Assembly: GCA_903884535.1 (NCBI GenBank)
Contig: CAISEZ010000142.1
Coordinates: 24,800-88,799 of the forward strand
Length of the DNA stretch: 64,000 nt
Origin: an uncultured Verrucomicrobia subdivision 3 bacterium
GTDB taxonomy: Bacteria; Verrucomicrobiota; Verrucomicrobiia; Limisphaerales; UBA11358
Direction of reading: 5' to 3'
Shown here: positions 2,700 through 60,074 of the stretch, one piece after another
How positions within the stretch are numbered: the first letter of the stretch is position 1
How the letters are laid out: each line of letters opens with the position of its first letter
Made by a program: the position numbers and the translations under genes
The notes under the pieces: model-generated
Databases searched by the model: none
The model's input: the letters and a program-made list of their open reading frames with translations, nothing else
Told to the model about the DNA's origin: nothing

Positions 2700-5075
2700 T
2701 TATTTCGTATGCAGCCGCAGCACCGTGAAGGAATTTCCGGGGAACACACGGGTCAAACTTGTGCCGCTGTATTCAACCGGCTCGGATTTCGGCGAAACTT
2801 TGGTTGGTTCCGCCAAAGAATTTTCATCCACGCCGCTGGCCGAGGTCAGCACGGTGGCTGTGCCCTTGCCGGTCAGATTGTTCGCGCCGGACAAATCGAG
2901 CTGCGTTTCGAGCGGCTGGGTGCCGGCGTTGACGACTTTCACAATTACATCGCCGGTCTTGTCTTCGTGCGACGCGCAGGCGTAAAGGCTCCTGACGCTG
3001 CCGGCCTTTTCAAATTCCACATCGTGAACCAGCTTGCCATCCAAATAGCATTTCACATTGCCGCCGTTGACCACGAGTTTGATGTCATACCAGCGGCCCG
3101 TCTCGATGTGGCTCGGCTTGCGATCCAGGGTTTCGCCAAACTCGATGCCGTCGGTTGAATTTTCCCAGCCGCCAATGTTCCACCAATTGCGGGCATCGTC
3201 GCTGGCGACGTGAAACAAAATCAAAAAGCCTTCGCGGCCGGAAATTTTCCGCGCCTTGAGCGTGAAGGTGTAATTCGTCCAGCTACGCTCGCCGGCGAGC
3301 GCGCGGACGTTTTCCTTCTCGGCCGTTTCCCGCATCGCGCCGTCTTTCACCGTCCACGCGCCGTTGCCCAATTTTTGCCAATCATTGGTTCCGCTGCTCA
3401 AATCGGGTTGCAACAAAACCGTTCCGTCCGGCGCGGTCACTTTCATGTCCTTGAATTCCGCCGCGGTGTTCCAAGTGCCCACGCCGACCTGACCCCGACT
3501 CTTTTCCACTTCAGCCATCGGCGACGCCACCGTCACCGGCAAAACCTCGTCGCCGCGATTCGCGCTGAACATCTGCTGCACAAAATACCCAGGCAAACCA
3601 TACCAGTTCGCGCTGTCGAAATTGATGAGGTCCGGATTCCAAGCGCGATGGTTTAAATTCACGAGCAGCGGCGCGTAGCTAGCGAGCGTCACAACGTCGG
3701 AATTCCGTTCCATGCCGGTCATGAACGCCGCCTCGCCGATGGCTGCGCGCAAATTGCCCTTGCCGGCATTTTGCGTGACCGCGTATTCGCCGATGAAAAT
3801 TTTCGGCCCGGTGCGGTCGTAGCTGTCATACTGGTCAGCTCGGCGCATGAACGATTCCGGCGTTTCGTAATAATGTTCGTCCACGATGTCCGCCGGCGGC
3901 GATTTCGGAAACGGCCGGCCGCGTAAATCTGTGTTCATGATAAATTGCAGATACGGATATTTTTCGCGCAGGGGATTCACCAGCAGCGGCCAGCGCTCAA
4001 CATAATCCGGCCCGCCGTTTTCGTTGCCGATTTCAATGTATTTCAAATTGAACGGTGTGGGATGGCCCATCGTCGCGCGGCGGCCGCCCCAAATGGAATT
4101 AGTCGGACCGTTCGCAAATTCCACCGCGTCGAGCGCGTCCTGCACCCATTGATCCATACGGTCCAGCGGGATGGTTTCCTTGTGCGAAATGCCGACGTTG
4201 ATGTCGAACAGTGGCTCCGCGCCGAGGTCTTCGGCCATCTGGAGATATTCGTAAAAACCCAGTCCGTGCGTGGCGTAATAACCCCAGATATTCCAGAGCG
4301 GCGTGCGCGTATCAATATTACCGACGGTATTTTTCCAATGGTTCATGTGCGCAAAATCATCGCCCTCCACCCAGCAGCCGCCAGGAAAACGCAGGAACGA
4401 CGGATGCAAACCCGCGAGCGATTCTGCGAGGTCGGGCCGCAGGCCGTGATCTTTCCACGTTTTTTTTGGCAGCAGCGAAACCATGTCGAGGAACAAAACG
4501 CTTTTGCCGTCGCCGGAAATTTCCAGCTTCGCTTTCGGATCGCTGCCAGTCGCGGTCAAGTCCAGCGTGTGATATTTCCAGCCATTGCCGATGTTGGAAA
4601 TGTCGCCGCTTGCTAGAACTTCGTCGGAGGTGCTCAAAATTTTCGCGGTGAGCTTGCCGTCAAACTTTTCGCCGCGCGCGGCCAGTTTCAGCGTGTAGCC
4701 ATCGCCGGAAACAATGTTCATGCCCCAATAGCCGTCATTCTCCACCGAAAAATCTCCGGCTGTTTTCAGGCGGAGCGATTTTCGGTTGAAAGGATTCAGC
4801 GGCTTGCTCTCATCAATCGTCGCCTCCGCGCCGGTGATTTTCCAACTCTCCGGTTTGTCCGCATCCTCGAAGGAACGGTTGCGCACGAGCTCGGGATAAA
4901 TGCCGCCGTCGGCGGACAGATTGATGTCCTCGAAGAAAATGCCCCACAGCGTCGGCGAAATTTTATGGCCGGGCTGATCCATGGCCACGAAAATTTTCGC
5001 CGGCTGCGCGTTCAGGGAAATGGCCGCGGCCAAAATTCCGGCGACCAGCCACCTGTGCAATTCCATTTTTCTCAT
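2700..5075 (-). CDS. Alpha-L-arabinofuranosidase, GH51-like catalytic domain with N-terminal carbohydrate-binding-like domain, secreted
   Basis: 791-aa ORF with signal peptide MRKMELHRWLVAGILAAAISLNA. YIEIGNENGG (GNE acid/base-type motif) and KIFIGEYAV (nucleophile-type Glu). Operon context with araA/araB. Confidence 0.75.
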   Translation of the reverse strand: MRKMELHRWLVAGILAAAISLNAQPAKIFVAMDQPGHKISPTLWGIFFEDINLSADGGIYPELVRNRSFEDADKPESWKITGAEATIDESKPLNPFNRKSLRLKTAGDFSVENDGYWGMNIVSGDGYTLKLAARGEKFDGKLTAKILSTSDEVLASGDISNIGNGWKYHTLDLTATGSDPKAKLEISGDGKSVLFLDMVSLLPKKTWKDHGLRPDLAESLAGLHPSFLRFPGGCWVEGDDFAHMNHWKNTVGNIDTRTPLWNIWGYYATHGLGFYEYLQMAEDLGAEPLFDINVGISHKETIPLDRMDQWVQDALDAVEFANGPTNSIWGGRRATMGHPTPFNLKYIEIGNENGGPDYVERWPLLVNPLREKYPYLQFIMNTDLRGRPFPKSPPADIVDEHYYETPESFMRRADQYDSYDRTGPKIFIGEYAVTQNAGKGNLRAAIGEAAFMTGMERNSDVVTLASYAPLLVNLNHRAWNPDLINFDSANWYGLPGYFVQQMFSANRGDEVLPVTVASPMAEVEKSRGQVGVGTWNTAAEFKDMKVTAPDGTVLLQPDLSSGTNDWQKLGNGAWTVKDGAMRETAEKENVRALAGERSWTNYTFTLKARKISGREGFLILFHVASDDARNWWNIGGWENSTDGIEFGETLDRKPSHIETGRWYDIKLVVNGGNVKCYLDGKLVHDVEFEKAGSVRSLYACASHEDKTGDVIVKVVNAGTQPLETQLDLSGANNLTGKGTATVLTSASGVDENSLAEPTKVSPKSEPVEYSGTSLTRVFPGNSFTVLRLHTK

Positions 5076-12698: not shown

Positions 12699-14093
12699 TT
12701 GCGGCAGGCTCGCCAAGTGAATAATCCGCCCATTCTGCCCCCAGCGGTTGCGGCCCCCAGGCGCAAGGGACATAAAAAACTCATCATCTTTTCCATCCTC
12801 GGCGTCATCGTGCTGGCGGTCGCGATGTTCTTCGCGCTGCACAAAAAAGAACCCGTCATCACCGTGCAGACCGAGAAGGTTTCACGGCACACCATCACCG
12901 AAACAGTCATCGCCAACGGCAAGATTTATCCGGTGCTGCAAGTCCACATCAGCGCCGAAGTCAGTGGCGAAATCATCGAACTGCCGGTCAAAGAAGGGCA
13001 GTTCGTCCACAAGGGTGATTTGCTGTTGAAGATCAATCCCAAGACGCCGCTGGCGATGCTCAACCAAACCAAAGCGAGCTACGAATCGTCGCGCGGTTCC
13101 GTGACCACTGCTGCCGCCAACCTCGAAAAGGCCGACGCGGATTTCAAGCGGAACAAGGAATTGTTCGACCACAAACTGATTTCCGACGCGGACTTCATCG
13201 GCTTCAAGGTCGCGCTGGACATCGCCCACGCGCAACTGGAGAGCGCCGGACATTCGGTGGAGCTGGCCAAGGCGTCCGTGGACAGCGCGCAGGATTCACT
13301 CGACAAGACCACCATCACCGCGCCGCTGGACGGCACGATCACCAAGCTGAATTCGCAGCTCGGCGAGCGCGTGCTGGGCACCGTGCAAAACGCGGGCACG
13401 GAAATCATGACCATTTCCGACTTGAGCGCGATGGAGGCGCGCGTGGACATCGGCGAGATGGACATCGTCCTGCTGCTGCCCGGCCAGAAGGCGAAGCTGG
13501 AAGTGGATTCGTTCAAGGACCGGAAATTTGCCGGCGTAGTGACGGATGTCGCCAATTCGTCGGAAGGCTTGAACGCCAGTTCCGCCGCCTCGGCTTACAG
13601 CAGCTCGTCGTCGTCCTCGTCGTCCTCGGCGACGCAGTTTCAGGTGCGCATCCGCCTCACCGAAGGCGACCAGTTCCGGCCCGGCATGTCCGTCAGCGCG
13701 GAAATTGAAACTCGCACGCGCACCAATTCGCTGGCGGTGCCGATCGCCAGCGTCACCACGCGGCTCCTCAAAAAGAAATCCGAGGCCGGCAAAACGAATT
13801 CCGCGCCGACCAATGCCACCGCTTCCGTCGGCAGCGAAACCAATTCCACCCGGTTAAAATCCGACGAAAAGCAGAAGCCGGTGGAAGTGGTTTTCACCGT
13901 GGACGGCAACCATGTGAAAACGGCTCCGGTGAAGATCGGCATCAGCGATGATAATTTCTGGGAAATCACTGACGGCTTGAAGGAGGGCGATGAAATCGTC
14001 ACCGGCAGTTACCACGCCATCAGCCACGACCTCGACGACGGTAAAAAAATTGTGAAAGGGCCGGCGGCCCCCGAAATCCCCAATTCAAAATGA
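12699..14093 (+). CDS. Efflux transporter periplasmic adaptor (HlyD/MacA family)
   Basis: 464-aa ORF. No ATG near the start, so TTG at 12699 or GTG at 12717 is used. N-terminal TM LIIFSILGVIVLAVAMFFAL, coiled-coil and beta-barrel-type sequence. Followed by the MacB-type ATPase and permeases. Confidence 0.8.
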   Translation: MRQARQVNNPPILPPAVAAPRRKGHKKLIIFSILGVIVLAVAMFFALHKKEPVITVQTEKVSRHTITETVIANGKIYPVLQVHISAEVSGEIIELPVKEGQFVHKGDLLLKINPKTPLAMLNQTKASYESSRGSVTTAAANLEKADADFKRNKELFDHKLISDADFIGFKVALDIAHAQLESAGHSVELAKASVDSAQDSLDKTTITAPLDGTITKLNSQLGERVLGTVQNAGTEIMTISDLSAMEARVDIGEMDIVLLLPGQKAKLEVDSFKDRKFAGVVTDVANSSEGLNASSAASAYSSSSSSSSSSATQFQVRIRLTEGDQFRPGMSVSAEIETRTRTNSLAVPIASVTTRLLKKKSEAGKTNSAPTNATASVGSETNSTRLKSDEKQKPVEVVFTVDGNHVKTAPVKIGISDDNFWEITDGLKEGDEIVTGSYHAISHDLDDGKKIVKGPAAPEIPNSK

Positions 14094-14160
14094 AAAATGC
14101 AAAATTAAAAACCAGGCTTCCCGCGCCGTATGTTTTTGCATTTTTAATTTTTAATTTTTA
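14070..14160. repeat. AT-rich 7-nt-periodic inverted repeat spanning the adaptor-gene stop codon
   Basis: Arms AATTCAAAATGAAAAATGCAAAA (14082..14104) and TTTTGCATTTTTAATTTTTAATT (14134..14156) are complementary at 21/23 positions. The GC-rich spacer is 29 nt. Right side continues as (ATTTTTA)x3. The last codons of the adaptor gene (..PEIPNSK*) are encoded by the left arm. Confidence 0.75.
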
Positions 14161-14169
14161 ATTCTGCCG

Positions 14170-14856
14170 ATGAGCCTGATCCGTCTCCAGAACATTTCGC
14201 GGCGATACCAGATGGGCACGGAGACCGTCCACGCGCTGCGCGAAGTCTCGCTGGAAATCCAGCGCGGCGAATACGTCGCCATCATGGGGCCGTCCGGCTC
14301 CGGTAAATCCACGCTGATGAATTTGCTCGGCTGCCTCGACACGCCGACCGGCGGCGATTATGAATTGAACGGCAGCCGTGTCAGCGAGATGAACGACAAT
14401 GCGCTCGCCGAAATCCGCAACCGCGAAATCGGTTTCATTTTTCAAACGTTCAATCTGCTGCCGCGATCCGATGCGTTGCGAAATGTGGAATTGCCCTTGG
14501 TTTATGCGGGCATCGCGTCAAAGGAACGTCGCAAGCTGGCACTGGAAGCCTTGGCCAGTGTCGGCCTCGCCGACCGCGTGCATCACCGGCCAAACGAACT
14601 TTCCGGAGGCCAGCGCCAGCGCGTGGCCGTGGCGCGGGCGCTGGTGAACAAGCCGTCCATCCTGCTCGCCGACGAGCCGACGGGCAATCTGGATTCCAAG
14701 ACCGGCACGGAAATCATGGCGCTGTTCCAACTGCTCGCGGACAAAGGCCACACCATCATCGTCGTCACGCACGAGGAGGAAGTGGCGCTGCATGCGCAGC
14801 GCGTCATTCGTATTCGTGACGGTTTGATCGCCAGCGACGAGCGCGTGAAAAAATAA
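14170..14856 (+). CDS. ABC transporter ATP-binding protein (MacB/LolD type)
   Basis: 228 aa. Walker [10 protein letters not shown], signature [15 protein letters not shown], Walker [13 protein letters not shown]. Confidence 0.9.
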
Positions 14857-36295: not shown

Positions 36296-38605
36296 TTATT
36301 TCAAATGGAGTTGGTTGCGGGCCGCATAAATCTGGCCAAGCGCGATGCCGCCGTCATTTGGCGGCACCCGTTGATGCCAGAACGGCTGAAAATTTTCCGT
36401 GCGCAACCGCGTCACGGCGCGTTCGGTCAGACAGCGGTTCTGGAAACAGCCGCCGCTCAAAACGACGCGCGGCTGCCCGAATTTTTTGGCGACGGCGACC
36501 ACCGCCTCGGCCAAAGCGTTGTGAAATTTCGCGGAAATTTCCGCCACGGAAACGCCGCCGTTCACGTCCGCCAAAATTTCATGTATCATCAGCGACCAGT
36601 CCAAAGTGAGTGGCGAGTGATGAGTGATGAGTGGCAAGCCATAGCAATCATCTGTCGCAAAACCGGCTTGTGCGAATTCCAATTCCATGGCCGGCTGGCC
36701 TTCAAATCGCATCTGTTGTTGCAGGTTGATCAGCGACGCCACCGCGTCGAACAGCCGACCCATGCTGGAAGTGACCGGCGAATTAAACCGGCGCTGCAAC
36801 ATGCCGCGCAAGGTCACCATCTCGACCGGCGGCATTTCGCGCAGCGGCGGCAGGTGCGTCATTTCGAAAACTGCCTCGCCGTATAATTCATAAAGCAAAC
36901 CCAGCGCGGCCCGACGCGGTTCCTTCACCGCCTTGTCGCCGCCGGGCAGGCGGAACGGCCGCAAATGCACTATCCGTTCGACATTTTCTTTGGTGACTAA
37001 GAAAAATTCACCGCCCCAGATCGTGCCGTCAGGGCCATAACCAGTGCCATCCCAGGCTACGCCCAGCGCGGGCAGTTCCACTTCGTTTTCTGCAATGCAC
37101 GATAAGACGTGTGCAACGTGGTGCTGCACCCCGAAAATTTTCCGTCCGCTAGTTTGTGCAAACTGCGTGGACAAATAATCCGGATGCAAATCGGCGGCGA
37201 TTAGTTCCGGTTCCACGCCGTAAAGTTTGGGCAGTTCCTTGGTGACGCGCCGGAAGGCGGTGTGCGCCGGTTCGGTTTCCAGATCGCCCACATGCTGGCT
37301 GAGAAAAATATTGTCGCCGACCGCCAGTGCCACGGAATTTTTCAGATGCGCGCCGACGGCCAGGACATTTTGAATTTTGAATTTTGAATTTGGAATTTGA
37401 ATCGGCAGCGGCGCGTAGCCGCGGGCGCGGCGTAGCATCATTTCGCGGCCCAGTAGCACGCGGACGATGGAATCATCTTCGTGTCGCACCACCGGCCGGT
37501 CGTGCACGAGGAAAAAATCAGCAATTCCGCGCAAGCGTTCGAGCGCCTCGAATTCATCCGTGCAAATCGGCTCGTCGCTCAGATTGCCGCTCGTGGCGAC
37601 GACCGGAAATTTCAACACCGACATCAGCAAATGATGCAGCGGATTGGACGGGAGCAGCACGCCAAGATCGGGATTGCCGGGAGCGGCGGAATTTCCAATT
37701 CCCAATTTCCAATTCCCAATTTTCCGCAACAAGACAATCGGCGCTTCCGGTGACCCCAACAATGGTTCCTCCAGCGGTGAAACCTTGCAGACTTGTTTAA
37801 TTGCGGCTAACGACGGGAACATCACCGCGAACGGCTTTTCCTCGCGGTGCTTGCGGTCCCGCAAAAGCTGGATAGCCGTTTCATTGCGCGCATCCGCCAG
37901 CAAGTGAAAGCCGCCGATGCCTTTGACCGCCACAATTTTTCCACGGCGAATCGCCTGCGCAGCCGCCAACAATGCTTCGTCGCCACCCAAAATCGCGTCG
38001 CCGGCGGGATTCCAGATTTCCAGATGCGGGCCGCAAACCGGGCAGGCATTAGGCTGCGCGTGAAACCGGCGGTCGCTTGGATTCTCATACTCCGCTTGGC
38101 AAGACGGACACATCGCGAATTTTTTCATTGAAGTGTTCGCGCGGTCGTAAGGCACGGACTCGATGATGCTGAAACGCGGGCCGCAGCGCGTGCAATTGGT
38201 GAACGGATAGCGGAACCGGCGGTTTTTCGGATCAAAAATTTCCCGCAGACAATCGGGACAGGTGGCGAGGTCCGGCAGGACGAGCGTGGTTTTGTCACCG
38301 CCGGTTTCACTGCTGCGGATCTCAAACTTCTGGAAACCGACCGCGTCCAGCCAGGTCGTCTCCATGCTCTGGATGGAACTGCGCGGCGGCTTTTCGGTTT
38401 CCAGGCGGCGCAAAAATTGTTCCAACGCCGGACGCGGGCTTTCCACCTCAACGAAGACGCCCTGCGACGAATTATTGACCCAGCCGGTCAGCGCCAGTTC
38501 GGTGGCGAGCCGGTGGACGAACGGACGAAAACCCACGCCCTGCACCGCGCCGCGCAAGGCGATCTTCACGCGGACGCGTGGGTGAAGCGGGTGATTGATC
38601 TTCAT
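36296..38605 (-). CDS. hypF: Carbamoyltransferase HypF
   Basis: 769 aa. Acylphosphatase RGAVQGVGFRPFVHRLA, two zinc-finger pairs (CPDCLREIFDPKNRRFRYPFTNCTRCGPRFSI; CPSCQAEYENPSDRRFHAQPNACPVCGP), and YrdC and Kae1-like regions. Confidence 0.95.
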   Translation of the reverse strand: MKINHPLHPRVRVKIALRGAVQGVGFRPFVHRLATELALTGWVNNSSQGVFVEVESPRPALEQFLRRLETEKPPRSSIQSMETTWLDAVGFQKFEIRSSETGGDKTTLVLPDLATCPDCLREIFDPKNRRFRYPFTNCTRCGPRFSIIESVPYDRANTSMKKFAMCPSCQAEYENPSDRRFHAQPNACPVCGPHLEIWNPAGDAILGGDEALLAAAQAIRRGKIVAVKGIGGFHLLADARNETAIQLLRDRKHREEKPFAVMFPSLAAIKQVCKVSPLEEPLLGSPEAPIVLLRKIGNWKLGIGNSAAPGNPDLGVLLPSNPLHHLLMSVLKFPVVATSGNLSDEPICTDEFEALERLRGIADFFLVHDRPVVRHEDDSIVRVLLGREMMLRRARGYAPLPIQIPNSKFKIQNVLAVGAHLKNSVALAVGDNIFLSQHVGDLETEPAHTAFRRVTKELPKLYGVEPELIAADLHPDYLSTQFAQTSGRKIFGVQHHVAHVLSCIAENEVELPALGVAWDGTGYGPDGTIWGGEFFLVTKENVERIVHLRPFRLPGGDKAVKEPRRAALGLLYELYGEAVFEMTHLPPLREMPPVEMVTLRGMLQRRFNSPVTSSMGRLFDAVASLINLQQQMRFEGQPAMELEFAQAGFATDDCYGLPLITHHSPLTLDWSLMIHEILADVNGGVSVAEISAKFHNALAEAVVAVAKKFGQPRVVLSGGCFQNRCLTERAVTRLRTENFQPFWHQRVPPNDGGIALGQIYAARNQLHLK
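37367..37401. repeat. Heptanucleotide tandem tract inside hypF (tract 1)
   Basis: Plus strand (ATTTTGA)x3 ATTTGGA ATTTGAA. Read in frame on the minus strand as ..PIQIPNSKFKIQNVLA.. AT-rich island in a GC-rich gene. Confidence 0.85.
37690..37725. repeat. Heptanucleotide tandem tract inside hypF (tract 2)
   Basis: Plus strand AATTTCC AATTCCC AATTTCC AATTCCC AATTTTCC. Read in frame on the minus strand as ..LLRKIGNWKLGIGNSAAPG.. Confidence 0.85.
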
Positions 38606-53970: not shown

Positions 53971-56055
53971 TCACCCATAAGCATTCGCCGGGCGCAGGTT
54001 CCATTCGTTCAACAAGTCCTTGGGAATCTCGGACAAAAAACGCGACGGCGATTGGAACATGTCGCTGCCGGAATTGCCGAAGCCGCCGCGGATCAGCGGA
54101 TAGGTCAGGTAGAGTTCGTTCTTCGCCCGCGTGACGGCCACGTAAAACAAACGCCGCTCATCTTCCTCACCCTCGGTGCTTTCCATCGAGCGCGTGGAGG
54201 GAAACATGCCGTCGCACAGCATGATCACGAACACGGCGTCGAACTCCAGACCCTTCGCCTGGTGGATGGTCGAGAGCTTGAGCTTTTCGTCGTCGCCCTT
54301 CGCCGCGTCGCCGTCCTCGGCCTCGACGTTGGTGAGCAACGCGAGTTGCGTGAGAAATTCCTCCACACTGCCAAATTGGTAAGCGAACTCGGCGAGCTGC
54401 TCCAATTCCTCCAGGCGCCGCTCGTAGTTGGCATAGGTCTCCTTCAGATAATCGTCGTAGCCCGCATCCATCACCAGCCGCAGCATCTTCGCCGCGCTTT
54501 TGCGCACGACCGGATCCTCGAGCTGCGAAATCGTGGCGACAAACTGCGCCCACGCCACGGCAGCCTTTTTTGGAACCGATTTGGAACAGGATTGCAACGC
54601 GGTCGCCATCTTGTAGCAACTAACGTAAGGAGGCTCTAACTCATTTCCGATTTCCGATTTCCGATTTCCGATTTCAATTTGAGCCTCGTTACCTCGGCTG
54701 CTGCTTTGAAAATTTCGAAACAGTTTGTCCGCGCCTTTCGCCGCCACGCCGGGCAGCAATTGCACCAGCCGTTTGAACGAAATTTCATCCCGCGGATTGG
54801 CGACGAGTTTCAAATACGCCGTCGCGTCCTTGATGTGCGCCTGCTCGAAAAACCGGATGCCGCTCGTGATGGAAAACGGAATCTGCTGCCGCGTCAGCTC
54901 CAACTGCAATTCCAGCGCGTGAAAATGCGAGCGGTAAAGCACCGCGACGTGGTTCAGGTTCTGGCCTTCCTCGCGCAATTCCAAAACGCGTTGGGCGATG
55001 AACGCCGATTGCTGGCCGGCGTCCTGGCATTGGATGAGCGCCGGCTTCACACCGGACTTGCGCGCGGGCGACAGCTCTTTCGCGAACTGGTTCACGTTCG
55101 CGGCGATGGCGGCGTTCGCGACGTTGAGAATTTCCGGCGTGCTGCGGTAATTCGTCTCGATCTTGAAAACCTTCGCACCGGGATAGCGCTTGGGAAATTC
55201 CAAAATGTTTGCAAAATTTGCGCCGCGCCAGGCATAGATGCTTTGCGCATCGTCACCGACCACCGTGACGTTGTGATGCCGCGCGGCGAGCAGATCAATC
55301 AAATCGCTCTGGAGCTTGTTCGTGTCCTGATACTCGTCCACCAAAATGAACTGGAACCGGCGCTGATACTGCTCGCGGATTTCGGCGTTGTCTTGAAACA
55401 GCTTCAGCCAGAGTGCGAGCAGGTCGTCAAAATCCATTGCGTTCGTCGCGCGTTTGCGCTCCGTGTATTTCTTGGCCAGCACGGCGATCTGCGCGGCGAA
55501 CGACTCAAAGTAGCTGAATTGTCCGGCCACCAATTCCTCGGTGGATTTGTGCGTGTTGGCCGTGAGCGAAAAAATTTCGTTCAGCACCGCCGGTTTTGGA
55601 AAATGCGTGCCCTTGGTTTCGATGCCGGCGTCGGTGACGCACGCCTTGATCAAATCCTGCGCGTCATCGCGGTCGAGAATCGTGAAGTCCGGCTGGTAGC
55701 CGACCGCCTCGGCGTGCAGCCGCAAAATCCGCGCGCCGATGGAGTGAAACGTGCCGCCCCAGAGCGCCCGCAATTCCTGGCCGAGCAAATCGGAAATGCG
55801 TCGCATCATTTCGCCGGCGGCCTTGTTGGTGAACGTGAGCAGTAAAATGCGGTCGGCGGGAATCCCCTGCTCCAGCAGATACGCCACGCGGTAAGTGAGT
55901 GTGCGCGTCTTGCCCGAACCCGCGCCGGCGATGACCAGCGCCGGCCCCGGCGGCGCGGTAACGGCAGCGAGCTGCTGTGGATTGAGTTCCTGCGCGTAAC
56001 CAATCTGGAGATGGACCTCCGGCTGATAGGGTTTCAGGACGTATTCGCGCGACAT
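53971..56055 (-). CDS. UvrD/PcrA/Rep-family ATP-dependent DNA helicase
   Basis: ORF 53971..56421. Start at ATG 56055 (MSREYVLKPYQ..ELNPQQLAAV). Walker A AGAGSGKTRT and motif II ILVDEYQDTN. Contains an in-frame repeat element. Confidence 0.9.
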   Translation of the reverse strand: MSREYVLKPYQPEVHLQIGYAQELNPQQLAAVTAPPGPALVIAGAGSGKTRTLTYRVAYLLEQGIPADRILLLTFTNKAAGEMMRRISDLLGQELRALWGGTFHSIGARILRLHAEAVGYQPDFTILDRDDAQDLIKACVTDAGIETKGTHFPKPAVLNEIFSLTANTHKSTEELVAGQFSYFESFAAQIAVLAKKYTERKRATNAMDFDDLLALWLKLFQDNAEIREQYQRRFQFILVDEYQDTNKLQSDLIDLLAARHHNVTVVGDDAQSIYAWRGANFANILEFPKRYPGAKVFKIETNYRSTPEILNVANAAIAANVNQFAKELSPARKSGVKPALIQCQDAGQQSAFIAQRVLELREEGQNLNHVAVLYRSHFHALELQLELTRQQIPFSITSGIRFFEQAHIKDATAYLKLVANPRDEISFKRLVQLLPGVAAKGADKLFRNFQSSSRGNEAQIEIGNRKSEIGNELEPPYVSCYKMATALQSCSKSVPKKAAVAWAQFVATISQLEDPVVRKSAAKMLRLVMDAGYDDYLKETYANYERRLEELEQLAEFAYQFGSVEEFLTQLALLTNVEAEDGDAAKGDDEKLKLSTIHQAKGLEFDAVFVIMLCDGMFPSTRSMESTEGEEDERRLFYVAVTRAKNELYLTYPLIRGGFGNSGSDMFQSPSRFLSEIPKDLLNEWNLRPANAYG
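54611..54706. repeat. Hairpin-type repeat element embedded in frame in the helicase gene
   Basis: Arms TTGTAGCAACTAACGTAAGGAGGCTC (54611..54636) and GAGCCTCGTTACCTCGGCTGCTGCTT (54681..54706) are imperfectly complementary (18/26 Watson-Crick). The core holds (ATTTCCG)x4 at 54643..54670. Confidence 0.75.
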
Positions 56056-56057
56056 GG

Positions 56058-56100
56058 CAGGGAATTGAACGGGCAAACGCCGGTTGGAGAAAGAAAAAAC
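56058..56100 (-). repeat. Copy A of a ~43-nt element abutting a start codon (fills the lnt-helicase intergenic gap)
   Basis: Minus strand GTTTTTTCTTTCTCCAACCGGCGTTTGCCCGTTCAATTCCCTG followed by CC-ATG (helicase). The 22-mer CAGGGAATTGAACGGGCAAACG (plus strand 56058..56079) is identical to 57519..57540. Confidence 0.8.
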
Positions 56101-56111
56101 GCACAGACTTT

Positions 56112-57551
56112 TCAAGCCTTCAGCCAAACGCGTTTTTCTTTCCAAGTGAGAAACATCAACGTCACCGTGACGATGGCGGTCACGCCGACGCAAAGCGGCG
56201 CGAGAAAACGATCCAAGGGCAGCGAGCCGCGCGGTGGCAGGCGAAGTTGCGCCGTCAGAATGTCGCCGTTGCCGGAAAATCGGGTTTGCGCGACGACGTT
56301 GCCGCCGCCGGTCACGGCTTGTGAAATGCCGGAACTGGCAAGGCGGAAAATCGGGATGCCGTATTCTGCCGCGCGCACCGGCGCGACGCGGGCGTGCAGC
56401 TCGTGCTGGTGCCGGCCCCATTCCGCCACGTCCATCGTCGGCACGATCAACAGCTGCGCGCCTTGCCGCACGAGTTCATCCGTAACACGCGTGTAGCTCA
56501 AATCGTAGCAGATGCAGAAACCGATCTTGCCCCATGGCGAATTCCAGACCATCTGTTCCGGCGCCGGCAGGCCATCGTGAAAAAACTGGATGGGCACGCG
56601 TTTGACCTGTTTGAACACAATCTCACCGTTCGTGCCGATGACAAAGGCCGTGTTGTAATAAACGTCATTCGTAATGACATCCTTGCCGCCCACGACAAGA
56701 AAGCGCGCGTGGTCGCGGCACCAGTTTTTCAGCGCGTCGGGCACGCCGCCGTCGAGCGTGTATTCGCTCAGGACAAAAATCGGCGCGTTGGTGTTTTTGG
56801 CCAAAGCCTGGTCGAGAATTCTGGGCAGAAGATGTTCTGGCGGGAATTCCATTTGGACACCGACGAGGGAAACCGGAGGAACGCGTTTGTGTTTTGTATA
56901 GGCTATCGCCGGAAGAAGGATTGCCCATAAAATTAACAACAATACCAAAATCAATATTGCTTCAATCATTTTCTGAGTCAGCAAATGCCTGTGGAAATAT
57001 AACGAAACAATTGCAAAAACAACGAAACCAAGGCCATACATTCCAGTTCCATTGAGCCAAGCCGGATAAGCGTAGCCAACATTCAGCCACGAAAACCTCA
57101 AGAAGTAGAGTTCGCTTCGGAAATATTCCACGCCGGTCCAGACTATCGGAATCAGCCACACAGCTTTGACTTGGCCCCAACGCCGGCGGCTGCCGCAAAC
57201 AATTGCTGCGAACAGCCCCACCCAAAACGCCAGCACCAGCCACAACACAATTGCGCACGGTCCGAAGATGCTCCACATGAAAAACAGTTGGGGCGCGTAA
57301 CACAAATATCCAGTGACCAGACCGAAATAAAACGCGCGCCGGACAGTTAACTGGTTTGTGAGTTGGACGAGTCCCCAAGCGTAGCCGAAGATAAACAAAC
57401 CCGTCGCCGGATATTTGAGCGACGTGTAAGCGACATGAAAACACACCACCGCCAGCGCGAGCCATAGGAAAGATTTTTTCCAACCGAGCGGTTCCACCGA
57501 TGGCCTGACGACATGCACCAGGGAATTGAACGGGCAAACGGGCCGTGGCAA
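56112..57551 (-). CDS. lnt: Apolipoprotein N-acyltransferase
   Basis: 479-aa maximal ORF starting at TTG 57551. GTG at 57518 or 57497 is more likely. Multi-TM N-terminal domain plus CN-hydrolase domain (..VLSEYTLDG.., ..KQVKRVP.., ..GFCICYDLSY..). Confidence 0.85.
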   Translation of the reverse strand: MPRPVCPFNSLVHVVRPSVEPLGWKKSFLWLALAVVCFHVAYTSLKYPATGLFIFGYAWGLVQLTNQLTVRRAFYFGLVTGYLCYAPQLFFMWSIFGPCAIVLWLVLAFWVGLFAAIVCGSRRRWGQVKAVWLIPIVWTGVEYFRSELYFLRFSWLNVGYAYPAWLNGTGMYGLGFVVFAIVSLYFHRHLLTQKMIEAILILVLLLILWAILLPAIAYTKHKRVPPVSLVGVQMEFPPEHLLPRILDQALAKNTNAPIFVLSEYTLDGGVPDALKNWCRDHARFLVVGGKDVITNDVYYNTAFVIGTNGEIVFKQVKRVPIQFFHDGLPAPEQMVWNSPWGKIGFCICYDLSYTRVTDELVRQGAQLLIVPTMDVAEWGRHQHELHARVAPVRAAEYGIPIFRLASSGISQAVTGGGNVVAQTRFSGNGDILTAQLRLPPRGSLPLDRFLAPLCVGVTAIVTVTLMFLTWKEKRVWLKA

Positions 57552-57570: not shown

Positions 57571-57660
57571 GTCGCGCGAAGGACGCAAAGTCGGCGAAGG
57601 AATTTCAAGCCGCCGATAAATTAATTCCGTCCTTCGCAACCTTCGCGGTCTTCGCGCGAC
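57571..57660. repeat. Imperfect inverted repeat built from CCTTCGC-type units (REP-like; possible terminator of the GH42-like gene)
   Basis: Outer 11 bp are perfect (GTCGCGCGAAG 57571..57581 / CTTCGCGCGAC 57650..57660). Inner GCGAAGGA / TCCTTCGC also pair. A T-run follows on the minus strand. Confidence 0.7.
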
Positions 57661-57671
57661 TGGCCTTGCTT

Positions 57672-59753
57672 TTATTTTCCTTCATCTTGCGCCAGCACGA
57701 TCATCGAATATATCCGCAGGGGCGGCACCGTAAAACGGACGACATCACCGGTCGTTTCAAATTGGAGCGTCACCGGCTCATCCGCGTCCGGCGAGAAGCA
57801 GGTCACGGACTTCACCGCGCCGGCAAATTGTTTTCGCACGGTCATCTTGAACGGCGACAGCGGATTCTTCCGGTCGAAGTTGACGAAGTGAATGATCGTC
57901 TCGCGTGACTCCGTTCGAGTCAGCATTTCGGCCACGGTCGTCAGCGGCGCATCGCTCGTCAAAGAAAGCCCGCGCGGCAATGCGCCCGTGATCGCATCAT
58001 AAATTTCCTGATGATTTTTCGGCAGCAGCCATTGCGGCGGCGACAGCTTGGGCGTCGGCTGCGAGCTCGCGCCGGGTTCTGGATTGTCATTGCCGCCGGA
58101 AGTTTTTTCAAACTTCACGTCCGGCACTATTTTGGGAATGTTAACGATTTCTCCCCTGCCCTCGGCCCGCGCGGGCAGGAACGGATTCTTGTGGCGCTTC
58201 TCGCGCCAATCGTTGTATTCGCCGGTATTGTCGGTCACGACTAGCGTGCCGCCGCGGCGGACATATTCGAGCAACATTTTCGCCTGTGCATCCGAGACAC
58301 ATTCCTGGCCCGCGAGAATCACGGATTGATAATGGTCAAGGTTCGTCAACTCTTCGTCAAAGAGCAGATCGAACGGAATTTTATGCTGGATCAGCACCTG
58401 CTCCATCAGCGTGGCGGGCGTGTAGGTGGCGTTGATGCTGTAAGCCATGGACGGCCAATTGCGCAGCACCGCCACGTCCGCCACGTTGCGGGTGCCGGTG
58501 TAATAGCGCGAAAAATAATGCCGGTAAAATTCAATCGTCGCCGTGGTGCCGGAGCGCGCCGCCATCCACGGCGAGCCGGCGTAACCGGCCACCGGGGATT
58601 CGTAGCCAAACGCCATTTGTTGGGCGCAAAGCAGTTCATCGCCAAGCGGCGCGTCGCAACTCGCGCCGAGGTCGCGCGCCATTTTGTAGGAGCGAATTTG
58701 CGAAACGAGCGCGCCGGTCTTGGCATCAATCCGCGCATCGTAACCGCCGGTGTCGAACGCGAGGATGTCCACATGGCCGGCGTAAAGCGGATGATAAACG
58801 GCGTTCGCCCAATACCGGTTCCAACTGTAAACGCCCTTGATGTTCATCAACACGGCGACATTCGGGTTGAGGCTTTTGACGTAATCGGAAAGATCGTCGG
58901 CATAATGCGCCAGCGATTCGCAGCGAAAGCGTGTCCATTCCTGCAAGACCGGATCGTTCAACACCGACAGGCCGTCCGGCTGCGTGGCGTTGTCCCATTC
59001 ATTCGGCTTGATCCAATTCACATCCGGCAAGCCGAACCGGCGCAGGACGGCTGCCTTGGTCGGATATTTATTGCGGAGAAAATCGTGAAACGCGGCAAGG
59101 CAGCGCGGGCAGCGGCACGAGTCCGGCTCGGGTTGCAGCATGACATTGTCGAAAACAATCTGGTCCGCGTGCAATTCCTCCACGCCGATTTTCAAAATGC
59201 GCTTGAGATAGTCGCGATACGCGGGCTCGTTCGGACAGGCATAGTGCCGGTAAGTTTGCAGGCCGTAAGGCACCCAATGATTTCCCTGATTGCGTTGCTC
59301 CCAATTCTGCGCCTCGGGCAATTCGTGATACAGCGTTTCGGTGAACATCGTCCCGCCGACGTAAAGTCCCACCTTGATGCCGTGCTGGTGCAGTTCATCG
59401 GCGATGCGCTTGGATTCCACCATCGCCGGCCGCTCGTATTCGAGGCCGAATCCCTTGTAGAAATAAATCATCGCATAACGCACGCCGGCATCGGCCATGC
59501 GCTGGATGTTTTCCGGATCGCCCATATGCGCGTAATGTTCCGGCTCATCGTCAAAGTGATCGCCGCGCCGCAGCAGAAAATCCAGCGGCTCGTGCGTCAG
59601 CCAGGTGATATTCTTGACCAATTGCCGGTTCGTTTCGGCGCTGCGTTCCCAGCGCGTCACGCTGGCCTGACTGGAATTGGTGACCGATTCTGCCAGCGCA
59701 GGCATTGGGGCCAGCAGGCTTAAAATAGTGAAAACAATAAAGTGTAGTTTCAT
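57672..59753 (-). CDS. Secreted GH42-like (beta-galactosidase-like TIM barrel) protein
   Basis: ORF 57672..59849. ATG 59753 (MKLHFIVFTILSLLAPMPALA signal peptide). YACPNEPAYRDY and CRCPRC resemble the CPN-x-P and CxCxxC zinc-site motifs of GH42. Confidence 0.45.
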   Translation of the reverse strand: MKLHFIVFTILSLLAPMPALAESVTNSSQASVTRWERSAETNRQLVKNITWLTHEPLDFLLRRGDHFDDEPEHYAHMGDPENIQRMADAGVRYAMIYFYKGFGLEYERPAMVESKRIADELHQHGIKVGLYVGGTMFTETLYHELPEAQNWEQRNQGNHWVPYGLQTYRHYACPNEPAYRDYLKRILKIGVEELHADQIVFDNVMLQPEPDSCRCPRCLAAFHDFLRNKYPTKAAVLRRFGLPDVNWIKPNEWDNATQPDGLSVLNDPVLQEWTRFRCESLAHYADDLSDYVKSLNPNVAVLMNIKGVYSWNRYWANAVYHPLYAGHVDILAFDTGGYDARIDAKTGALVSQIRSYKMARDLGASCDAPLGDELLCAQQMAFGYESPVAGYAGSPWMAARSGTTATIEFYRHYFSRYYTGTRNVADVAVLRNWPSMAYSINATYTPATLMEQVLIQHKIPFDLLFDEELTNLDHYQSVILAGQECVSDAQAKMLLEYVRRGGTLVVTDNTGEYNDWREKRHKNPFLPARAEGRGEIVNIPKIVPDVKFEKTSGGNDNPEPGASSQPTPKLSPPQWLLPKNHQEIYDAITGALPRGLSLTSDAPLTTVAEMLTRTESRETIIHFVNFDRKNPLSPFKMTVRKQFAGAVKSVTCFSPDADEPVTLQFETTGDVVRFTVPPLRIYSMIVLAQDEGK

Positions 59754-60074
59754 GGTATTTGAGTTCGATTTTGACTTATCTTTCCAAAAATTTCCCGCCG
59801 GTTTATCAACTGCATTTTGCGGACCAGGTTTGCGAACTGCATCAGTCACTATTCCAACAGGTCGGACGGCACTTACCAGCCCACCACTTGCCGCACAATA
59901 ATTCGCTCCTGAAAATCTGGCTTCCTCCCGCTGCGCGGATAATCTGCCGACAAGCTAAATGCTAACCCAAGTAGATTCGGCGTCAGCTAAAATTGAAGTG
60001 AACTCGGGTAGAACGATCAGGCCAACGAGGCTCTTGATTTCAGCGAAGAATCCAGACGGATTTCAAGATTCAAG

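Follow-up and report, generated by a model that had tools for sequence, protein, structure and literature searches.

A probable REP-type repeat pair translated in frame within a verrucomicrobial PcrA/UvrD-type helicase gene

What is an inverted repeat with an AT-rich core doing inside the reading frame of a DNA helicase? The question is raised by a 64,000-nt stretch of contig CAISEZ010000142.1 from an uncultured Verrucomicrobia subdivision 3 bacterium (the whole 64-kb stretch is called the window here), in which a minus-strand gene for a PcrA/UvrD-type helicase carries such a repeat. A preliminary description, made from the letters of the DNA, had proposed a mobile hairpin inserted in frame. 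We consider, with a probability of roughly 0.8, that this repeat is a non-autonomous element of the repetitive extragenic palindrome (REP) type, lying within the gene and translated with it, with a heptamer microsatellite as its spacer. The pair of REP units occupies a helicase loop that has about 16 residues in distant relatives, and many Limisphaerales orthologues have such a pair in the same position. The repeat family is dispersed and mostly intergenic, at the 3' ends of genes. The parts of the locus are these:

53971..56052, minus strand: host gene, a PcrA/UvrD-type superfamily-1 helicase of 693 aa starting at MSREYV (from Pfam, structure 1pjr, and orthologue starts)
54613..54704, unstranded: whole repeat of 92 nt, an inverted pair of REP units with GTAG ends outward (from the sequence; the same architecture occurs in the relatives L001 and L004 and in pairs elsewhere)
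54681..54704, minus strand: REP unit 1, read head-first as GCAG CAGCC GA G GTAA C GA GGCTC
54637..54680, unstranded: AT-rich spacer between the units, 44 nt, 34% GC; the 43- to 46-nt class recurs in the family
54643..54675, unstranded: heptamer microsatellite, ATTTCCG x4.7 on the plus strand and CGGAAAT on the gene strand (Tandem Repeats Finder)
54613..54636, plus strand: REP unit 2, read head-first as GTAG CAACT AA C GTAA G GA GGCTC

The host protein is a PcrA/UvrD/Rep superfamily-1A helicase. The Pfam models UvrD-helicase (E=1.5e-82) and UvrD_C (E=7.5e-61) were both matched end to end, and the best solved relative was PcrA (1pjr, E=2e-115), in an alignment spanning residues 22-690. Between the window and L001 (95% identical), nucleotide identity is 0.915 across the gene versus 0.80 at third positions, and on this comparison the helicase is still under selection. 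Its identity is unaffected by any of the repeat findings. The open reading frame (ORF) as listed covers 53971..56421 on the minus strand, and MSREYV at 56052 is probably the real start because the orthologues begin there. Upstream of that point the frame stays open for 123 codons (56053-56421) and overlaps the 3' end of an lnt-like gene; a gene caller could extend the helicase too far through this stretch.

The evidence for an insertion comes from alignments. The 120 closest orthologues (79-99% identical, from Limisphaerales-type Verrucomicrobiota) are all conserved except in the segment between ...GADKLFxxF and IAxALQxCxKxVPKKA, where they have the REP pair, one of three other repeat types, or a short linker of 22 residues. 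From K443 to Q487 the linker has 43 residues in the window protein, compared with 22 in the 667-aa orthologues and a median of 16 (interquartile range 16-18) in 140 distant homologues at 39-66% identity. For most of the distant homologues, the HMMER alignment is interrupted at residue ~450. As judged from these alignments, the REP pair is an insertion and not native linker, which bears out the preliminary description. The alignment to PcrA puts the insertion site in residues 417-492, which we take to be subdomain 2B; that subdomain is regulatory in UvrD, Rep, and PcrA. AlphaFold modeling of the helicase with 55 close orthologues gave a poor model, with a mean predicted local distance difference test score (pLDDT) of 53. 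The insert, residues 454-479, was modeled as a low-confidence coil between more confident helices, which weakly supports the surface loop that had been anticipated.

The repeat is translated in frame within the 32 residues SSSRGNEAQIEIGNRKSEIGNELEPPYVSCYK (helicase residues 450-481), and the minus-strand ORF reads ...FQSSSRGNEAQIEIGNRKSEIGNELEPPYVSCYKMATALQ... across it. Tryptic peptides encoded by the insert include GNEAQIEIGNR and SEIGNELEPPYVSCYK. In the sense of the gene, the layout is GCAG CAGCC GA G GTAA C GA GGCTC for unit 1, AAATTGAAAT (CGGAAAT)4 GAGTTA for the spacer, and GAGCC TC C TTAC G TT AGTTG CTAC for unit 2. The sequence statements of the preliminary description were all borne out. 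Its two arms (54611-54636 and 54681-54706) read as quoted and match at 18/26 positions by Watson-Crick pairing, or at 20/26 with G-U pairs by a hand count of the eight mismatches. The perfect ATTTCCG heptamers were recovered by Tandem Repeats Finder with 100% matches and a score of 66, the joint top score in the window; three of these units (21 nt) encode the seven-residue cycle EIGNRKS. Translation in frame within a UvrD/PcrA-type helicase also held, from the ORF reading, Pfam, and 1pjr. A drop in GC content, described as sharp, is present but modest (34% in the spacer and 47% in the element, against 58% in the helicase coding sequence).

The two units have decayed in different ways. Unit 1 has lost its head (GTAG to GCAG) and kept both the AGCC/GGCT stem and the G-C pair closing the GTAA loop. 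It is one mismatch from the subfamily consensus and was the sole window match of a structure-only finder, with a weak predicted hairpin of -2.1 kcal/mol. Unit 2 has kept its GTAG head (54613-54616), and its stem is broken by three transitions relative to the family consensus; no fold is predicted for it (0 kcal/mol). The L001 copy of unit 2 (GTGGCAGCCGACGTGAGGAGGCTC) is better kept, with the stem and a GTGA loop intact and the head changed to GTGG. Both L001 and L004 (80% identical) have an element of equal length and the same pair architecture at the same helicase site. The window copy appears to be a decaying relic, carried for a long time as a passenger in a permissive loop of the helicase.

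As a bare inverted repeat, the element is unremarkable. Composition-matched block shuffles of the window, searched at the 18/26 threshold with a 30- to 60-nt gap, yield 2-11 such positions (arm start plus gap). The element is not among the best 25 of the 32 inverted repeats by length in the window, and GTAG hairpins in the window are at chance level (2 versus 2.95). What establishes the feature as real is its membership in a repeat family, together with the orthologues that lack it, and not inverted-repeat statistics.

The family was found by scanning species-representative genomes (one per species) with the arm pattern. At least 120 stretches matched, nearly all from Verrucomicrobiota, and the counts given below come from 934 kb around them; several loci came from the same metagenome-assembled genomes (MAGs). 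This sample contains 257 units, of which 65 are single and the others form 96 inverted pairs whose GTAG ends point outward. A search by structure only gave 197 units with GTAG directly before 181 of them, so the terminal tag that marks GTAG-tagged REPs is present. As in those REPs, the pairs are mainly extragenic and downstream of genes: 60 of the 96 lie outside long ORFs, and in 13 of these 60 the TAG of the head terminates an ORF of at least 100 codons. The 20 kb flanking the L004 helicase contain three more pairs, each intergenic and directly after a gene end, and two single units. The preliminary description had proposed a dispersed repeat of the Planctomycetes-Verrucomicrobia-Chlamydiae (PVC) group, and this is borne out as a repeat family of Verrucomicrobiota. 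Contigs L009, L018, L039, L054, L077, and L078 carry this verrucomicrobial REP family under the titles of Bifidobacterium, Bifidobacteriaceae, Klebsiella, or Akkermansia muciniphila MAGs, probably through mis-binning or wrong record taxonomy.

Translation of these pairs is not peculiar to the helicase. Nearly all of the sampled pairs (91/96) are open in at least one frame, and for 36/96 the surrounding ORF extends at least 80 codons to either side. Among the 32 non-helicase ORFs tested, 24 have Pfam domains in the same frame, and in 22 the domains span or flank the element. Thus, at least 22 of the 93 sampled pairs outside the helicase locus, or about a quarter of the sampled pairs, are in frame in real genes. 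The hosts include class-III aminotransferases (Aminotran_3, twice), UvrA, UvrB, MutS, XseA (twice), ArgJ, ValS, a Glu/Gln-tRNA synthetase, AcrB-type pumps (twice), a P-type ATPase, xanthine dehydrogenase, and restriction-modification enzymes, so that repair genes recur once more among the hosts of intragenic REPs. The same site in the exonuclease VII large subunit gene (XseA) is occupied in two genomes (L032:7477-7534 and L089:4941-5013), as is the same site in an AcrB-type transporter gene (L019:794-873 and L115:1042-1133). These shared sites indicate old, vertically inherited insertions that are not confined to the helicase.

The read-through peptides of the family are SSRREEA, SLLTSAAT, and EPPHVGCY, the last two of which the preliminary description had given in slightly different form as products of a PVC repeat. 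Along with seven-residue cycles like EIGNRKS, they can serve as markers of translated repeats, which are neither domains nor separate genes and which inflate or split ORF calls in MAGs of Verrucomicrobiota.

The closest published parallel is a survey that defined the GTAG-tagged REPs, with members from Proteobacteria, Cyanobacteria, Chloroflexi, and the PVC group (Di Nocera, De Gregorio & Rocco 2013, BMC Genomics 14:522, PMC3733652). In that survey these REPs form homo- and heterodimers, mostly inverted with GTAG outside ("HH"). They follow genes, whose stop codon is often supplied by the TAG of the head. Some copies are entirely intragenic and code for 20-30 residues, and many of the intragenic hosts are genes for DNA synthesis or repair, those for UvrA/B and UvrD/REP helicases among them. 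GTAG REPs are abundant in the verrucomicrobium Opitutus terrae, which has the most intragenic GTAG repeats of the survey. The present family shares the short GTAG-ended palindrome, the HH dimers, the placement after genes, the TAG stops, and the intragenic copies in repair genes. It differs in its peptides, since GTAG-17 to -20 of O. terrae encode GTGVPPV or VGPALAAG rather than SSRREEA, SLLTSAAT, or EPPHVGCY, and in its spacers, which are 10-59 nt long and 7-nt periodic, whereas the published HH dimers have conserved spacers and heptamers are not mentioned for them. On these two differences the family is new, and the case is a further instance of a known phenomenon. Because intragenic GTAG REPs in Verrucomicrobia were already published in 2013, the helicase case is a new example and not a new phenomenon. 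The suggestion that it was worth documenting stands for annotation and for work on REPs; the phenomenon itself had been documented in another verrucomicrobium and in repair genes. To the intragenic GTAG REPs published for one cultured Opitutus, the present results add a second REP family that is widespread among uncultured Limisphaerales-type bacteria.

The preliminary description had also drawn a parallel with the Rickettsia palindromic elements (RPEs), and in-frame insertion of that kind was borne out by the helicase and at least 22 further hosts. In both cases palindromes are translated in frame in housekeeping genes, in presumed permissive loops. As summarized in PMC3733652, RPE-4 and RPE-6 of Ogata et al. 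are members of the CGTC-tagged superfamily, which is not known to have a dedicated transposase. The window family is GTAG tagged rather than CGTC tagged and belongs to another phylum, so that, going by the same summary, the likeness is one of behavior. Its hosts are free-living bacteria with large genomes, unlike Rickettsia.

Each REP unit probably folds on itself. The unit is a short imperfect palindrome of 24 nt, within the 20-40 bp typical of GTAG-tagged REPs, and consists of the GTAG tag followed by a stem of 5 bp, a tandem G·A/A·G mismatch, and a single base pair that closes a GTGA/GTAA (GNRA-type) loop; the window unit at 54613-54636 no longer folds. Positions 12 and 17 form a Watson-Crick pair in 186/192 arms, switching between C-G (54) and G-C (34), and positions 8 and 21 are C-G (42), A-T (20), or T-A (8). 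Across 96 distinct units, 83% of cells are paired versus 69% in shuffles (0/500 reached this), and covariation is 0.315 versus 0.101. The differences between the window's two arms are compensated inside each arm. On this sequence evidence the arms are probably not, in the first place, halves of one hairpin. A single long hairpin as the selected structure was ruled out: the two arms of a pair have the same base at position 12 in 45/96 pairs and different bases in 51/96, and each arm is self-complementary there. Of the hairpin in the preliminary description, the two matching arms remain, now as two REP units that probably fold individually in place of one stem.

The spacers have a pattern of their own. 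Their lengths, 10-59 nt, cluster near 17, 23-26, 29-32, 36-38, and 43-46 nt. In spacers of at least 28 nt, self-match at lag 7 is 0.42 versus 0.27 in shuffles (z=13), with z=7.7 at lag 14. Heptamer tracts of at least 21 nt were found in 9 of the 42 long spacers, every one of 43-46 nt, and eight of these tracts fit the pattern CGGNNNN. The unit differs by locus (CGGAAAT, CGGAATG, CGGAGTG, CGGCAAT...). The (CGGAAAT)4 array in the helicase fits this 43- to 46-nt subclass, whose spacers carry about four CGGNNNN heptamers, and so typifies it rather than being a local accident. Binding of a CsrA-type protein to the repeated GGA was ruled out as an explanation by inspection, since the heptamers occur in either orientation relative to the host gene.

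Periodic spacers of this kind between REP units seem undescribed. Cyanobacterial heptamers known as STRR were reportedly described by Mazel et al. in 1990. TAACTGA heptanucleotide repeats occur in Beggiatoaceae, cyanobacteria, and Bacteroidetes (MacGregor 2015, PMC4679880) and resemble the present arrays in forming 2- to 6-copy, 7-nt arrays that are dispersed in the genome, occasionally lie in ORFs, and have an unknown origin. Unlike them, the arrays of the window family lie between two REP units, and their unit varies by locus with no fixed heptamer.

A candidate for the mobilizing enzyme, a REP-associated tyrosine transposase (RAYT), was found in a relative:

L015:935-1561 (JBBRQL010000008.1, a Verrucomicrobiota MAG): RAYT-like gene, a 208-aa ORF with PDHIHLVW and YVLMNPVKDG (HUH and Tyr motifs)

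Its only NCBIfam match is NF047646 REP_Tyr_transpos, the REP-associated tyrosine transposase model (E=7e-12), and it matches the Escherichia coli TnpArep structure 4er8 (E=8.5e-5). Units of the same family flank it with their heads outward, as a pair at 819-916 upstream and as units at 1517-1540 and 1591-1614 downstream, and the last residues of its product (GQSLLTSVATETEGGS) are encoded by a REP unit. A second, truncated RAYT-like copy adjoins a pair in L034. An IS200-type Y1 transposase gene (HVHILLS) with its own hairpin ends lies at L131:3957-4403, 3 kb from a helicase orthologue and near a single REP unit (4550-4573); it is distinct from the RAYT-like element.

Pseudomonas REPINs have tightly conserved spacing. 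The window family resembles the REPIN-RAYT system (Bertels & Rainey 2011, PLoS Genet 7:e1002132, PMC3116915) in having two inverted REPs as the unit, as in all 96 pairs, in its presence or absence among orthologous sites, and in the RAYT-like gene that the same REPs flank in L015 (compare TnpArep, 4er8). It departs from REPINs in its spacing of 10-59 nt in ~7-nt steps, which is not the conserved spacing of a REPIN. Its RAYT candidate, unlike those of REPIN-RAYT, is divergent and under the NCBIfam cut-off, with none in the window.

The helicase site itself has a varied history. In a neighbor-joining tree of the orthologues, the REP-pair state occurs throughout, with four other states of the site interspersed:

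L125 and others: heptamer arrays without REP arms, such as (AACATYC)5
L127: CCCTCTCCCC...GGGGAGAGGG hairpin
L126: TCGCGCGAAG... hairpin, of the type translated as REEREADEG...PSLPSLSSRD
Some orthologues: short linker

Repeats are also nested. The CCCTCTCCCC-type hairpin sits within the heptamer insert of some helicase orthologues (P0015, P0024, and P0038). One loop of the helicase has thus been occupied by four repeat types in different lineages, and this seems undescribed. Together with the 7-nt-periodic spacers, it bears on how repeats choose their sites or survive at them. A REP pair at L039:6580-6770 has a spacer of 143 nt owing to a nested second palindrome (CCCTCTCCCC...GGGAGAGGG type, translated as PLTRPSATLSPSDGERD). 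The window has an intergenic copy of the L126 insert family at 57571-57660, an inverted repeat with 31-nt arms (GTCGCGCGAAGGACGCAAAGTCGGCGAAGGA and TCCTTCGCAACCTTCGCGGTCTTCGCGCGAC; 81% complementary) between the lnt-like gene (56112-57551) and a minus-strand ORF at 57672-59849.

The following history would account for these results. The pair would have inserted once, in an ancestor of the helicase clade, into single-stranded DNA and by means of a RAYT acting in trans. The insert would have survived because its 96 nt are whole codons in a frame without a stop and because the loop in subdomain 2B is permissive. It would since have been a largely neutral passenger, with the spacer heptamers turning over by slippage or conversion, and in the window's lineage one unit and one GTAG head would have decayed. 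The element and the synonymous sites are about equally diverged between the window and L001 (identity 0.83 versus 0.80).

Several observations weigh against this account. Between the window and L004, the element is more conserved than synonymous sites (0.79 versus 0.60), which pure neutral drift does not predict; this suggests conversion against other copies, re-insertion, or some constraint. The REP pair and the other states of the site are intermixed on the orthologue tree, and a history of one insertion with plain inheritance is therefore too simple. The NCBIfam match of the RAYT-like protein is 45 bits against a curated cut-off of 80, and the protein has no Pfam match. Neither a RAYT nor a second copy of the arm or unit was found in the 64-kb window or in 34 kb from its 95%-identical relatives. 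By nearest-neighbor calculation, the hairpin of a single unit is weak (-2.1 to -2.7 kcal/mol) and no better than those of shuffles, and the covariation is carried mainly by two position pairs with few states. Of the mobile element in the preliminary description, membership in a repeat family stands, and current mobility does not, there being no other copy in the 64 kb; in the window's lineage, mobility may be extinct and is historical at best.

The long-range conservation would also fit a nucleic-acid element under selection, the pair being kept for a DNA or mRNA structure that stabilizes the mRNA, makes translation pause between domains, or binds a DNA-binding protein. The mRNA strand folds at -38.2 kcal/mol (z=-2.7), and repair hosts recur (UvrA, UvrB, MutS, and XseA twice among the 22), a tendency also seen in PMC3733652. 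However, in close orthologues the site is occupied by unrelated repeats or by a short linker, one unit in the window lacks a stem, and conversion against other genomic copies can also raise the conservation of the arms. The z-scores of the predicted folds are modest, at -2.2 and -2.7. Rfam gave no match at gathering scores across the window and none at E<=1 across the element, and the element contains no promoter or terminator pattern. We regard selection for such a structure as unlikely.

Another reading is a phase-variable switch. A perfect heptamer tract that slipped by one unit would turn the helicase off and on and so create a reversible mutator or hyper-recombination state. The (CGGAAAT)x4.7 tract is 100% identical within the ORF, and in L001 all four corresponding units read CGGAAAG, with the same number of units. 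This concerted replacement of T by G points to slippage or conversion. Among the orthologues, arrays of CGGAAAT, CGGAAAG, or CGGCAAT are each homogeneous within the array and interspersed on the tree, and some orthologues have a single unit where others have four (this 21-nt difference preserves the frame).

A 7-nt unit shifts the reading frame, and so out-of-frame alleles were sought. The orthologue in L130 (GCA_016307145.1) has a single frameshift inside an insert with (AAATGGC)x3; in L130:3001-5200 (JADMIO011346911.1), the other frame encodes an intact C-terminal stretch of 287 aa, and the neighboring genes are intact. Among the split alleles this is the credible one; it may represent a true off allele, a pseudogene of recent origin, or an error of assembly. 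When the C-terminal 212 aa were used as a query, many fragments of 200-260 aa were returned, of which two (L131 and L132) were inspected. The split alleles in L129, L131, and L132 were set aside: they come from long-read assemblies, L129 and L131 are frameshifted elsewhere too and L131 lies at a contig edge, and the split in L132 is its sole one but is untrustworthy. A metagenome scan for population variants of the helicase locus gave one contig only and nothing new.

Like contingency loci, the tract is a perfect tandem repeat within an ORF whose unit is not a multiple of 3. Unlike them, it has about four units, which is short for such a locus, and shows no length polymorphism in the lineage: three independent assemblies (P0001, L001, and L002) are all in frame and of equal length, and the spacers of orthologues differ by multiples of 21 nt, or three units. 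We therefore think a switch at this locus improbable. It is equally a long shot that REP pairs in pcrA/uvrD, and perhaps in other repair genes, act generally as reversible off-switches through slipping heptamers and produce transient mutator subpopulations; the CGGAAAT/CGGAAAG replacement and the L130 frameshift are compatible with this and do not show it.

An exapted protein module, in which the insert peptide has acquired a function such as a partner-binding loop on subdomain 2B, appears very unlikely. The segment is kept in many orthologues at 79-99% identity, and subdomain 2B is regulatory in this group of helicases. However, the residues encoded by the spacer change wholesale (IGNRKSEIGN to SGKRKAESGN to IGNQ), other orthologues have the whole segment replaced, the same peptides occur in unrelated proteins, and the insert is a low-confidence coil in the (poor) model. 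That the 32 residues are ordinary helicase linker with a coincidental likeness to the repeat is scarcely credible. The bare inverted repeat is within chance expectation and has no second copy in the window. However, the window protein has 43 residues where the median for distant homologues is 16, orthologues without the segment exist, and the same units and architecture occur in intergenic DNA and unrelated genes.

Heptamer tracts occur elsewhere in the window. In-frame, AT-rich, 7-nt-periodic tracts without adjoining REP arms lie in the HypF gene (36296-38605, minus strand) at 37367-37402, 37690-37722, and also 36607-36633, among them (ATTTTGA)x5.3, translated as IQIPNSKFKIQN, and (AATTTCCAATTCCC)x2.4, translated as KIGNWKLGIGN. 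They were ruled out as length insertions because only 2-3 residues are added relative to the solved HypF 3vth; native loops have therefore been overwritten rather than lengthened. Finally, AT-rich inverted heptamer arrays, (AAAATGA)n and (ATTTTTA)n, with arms of 23-26 nt that are 85-91% complementary, lie at 14082-14166, in the gap that separates genes for an HlyD-like protein (12699-14093) and an ABC ATPase (14170-14856).

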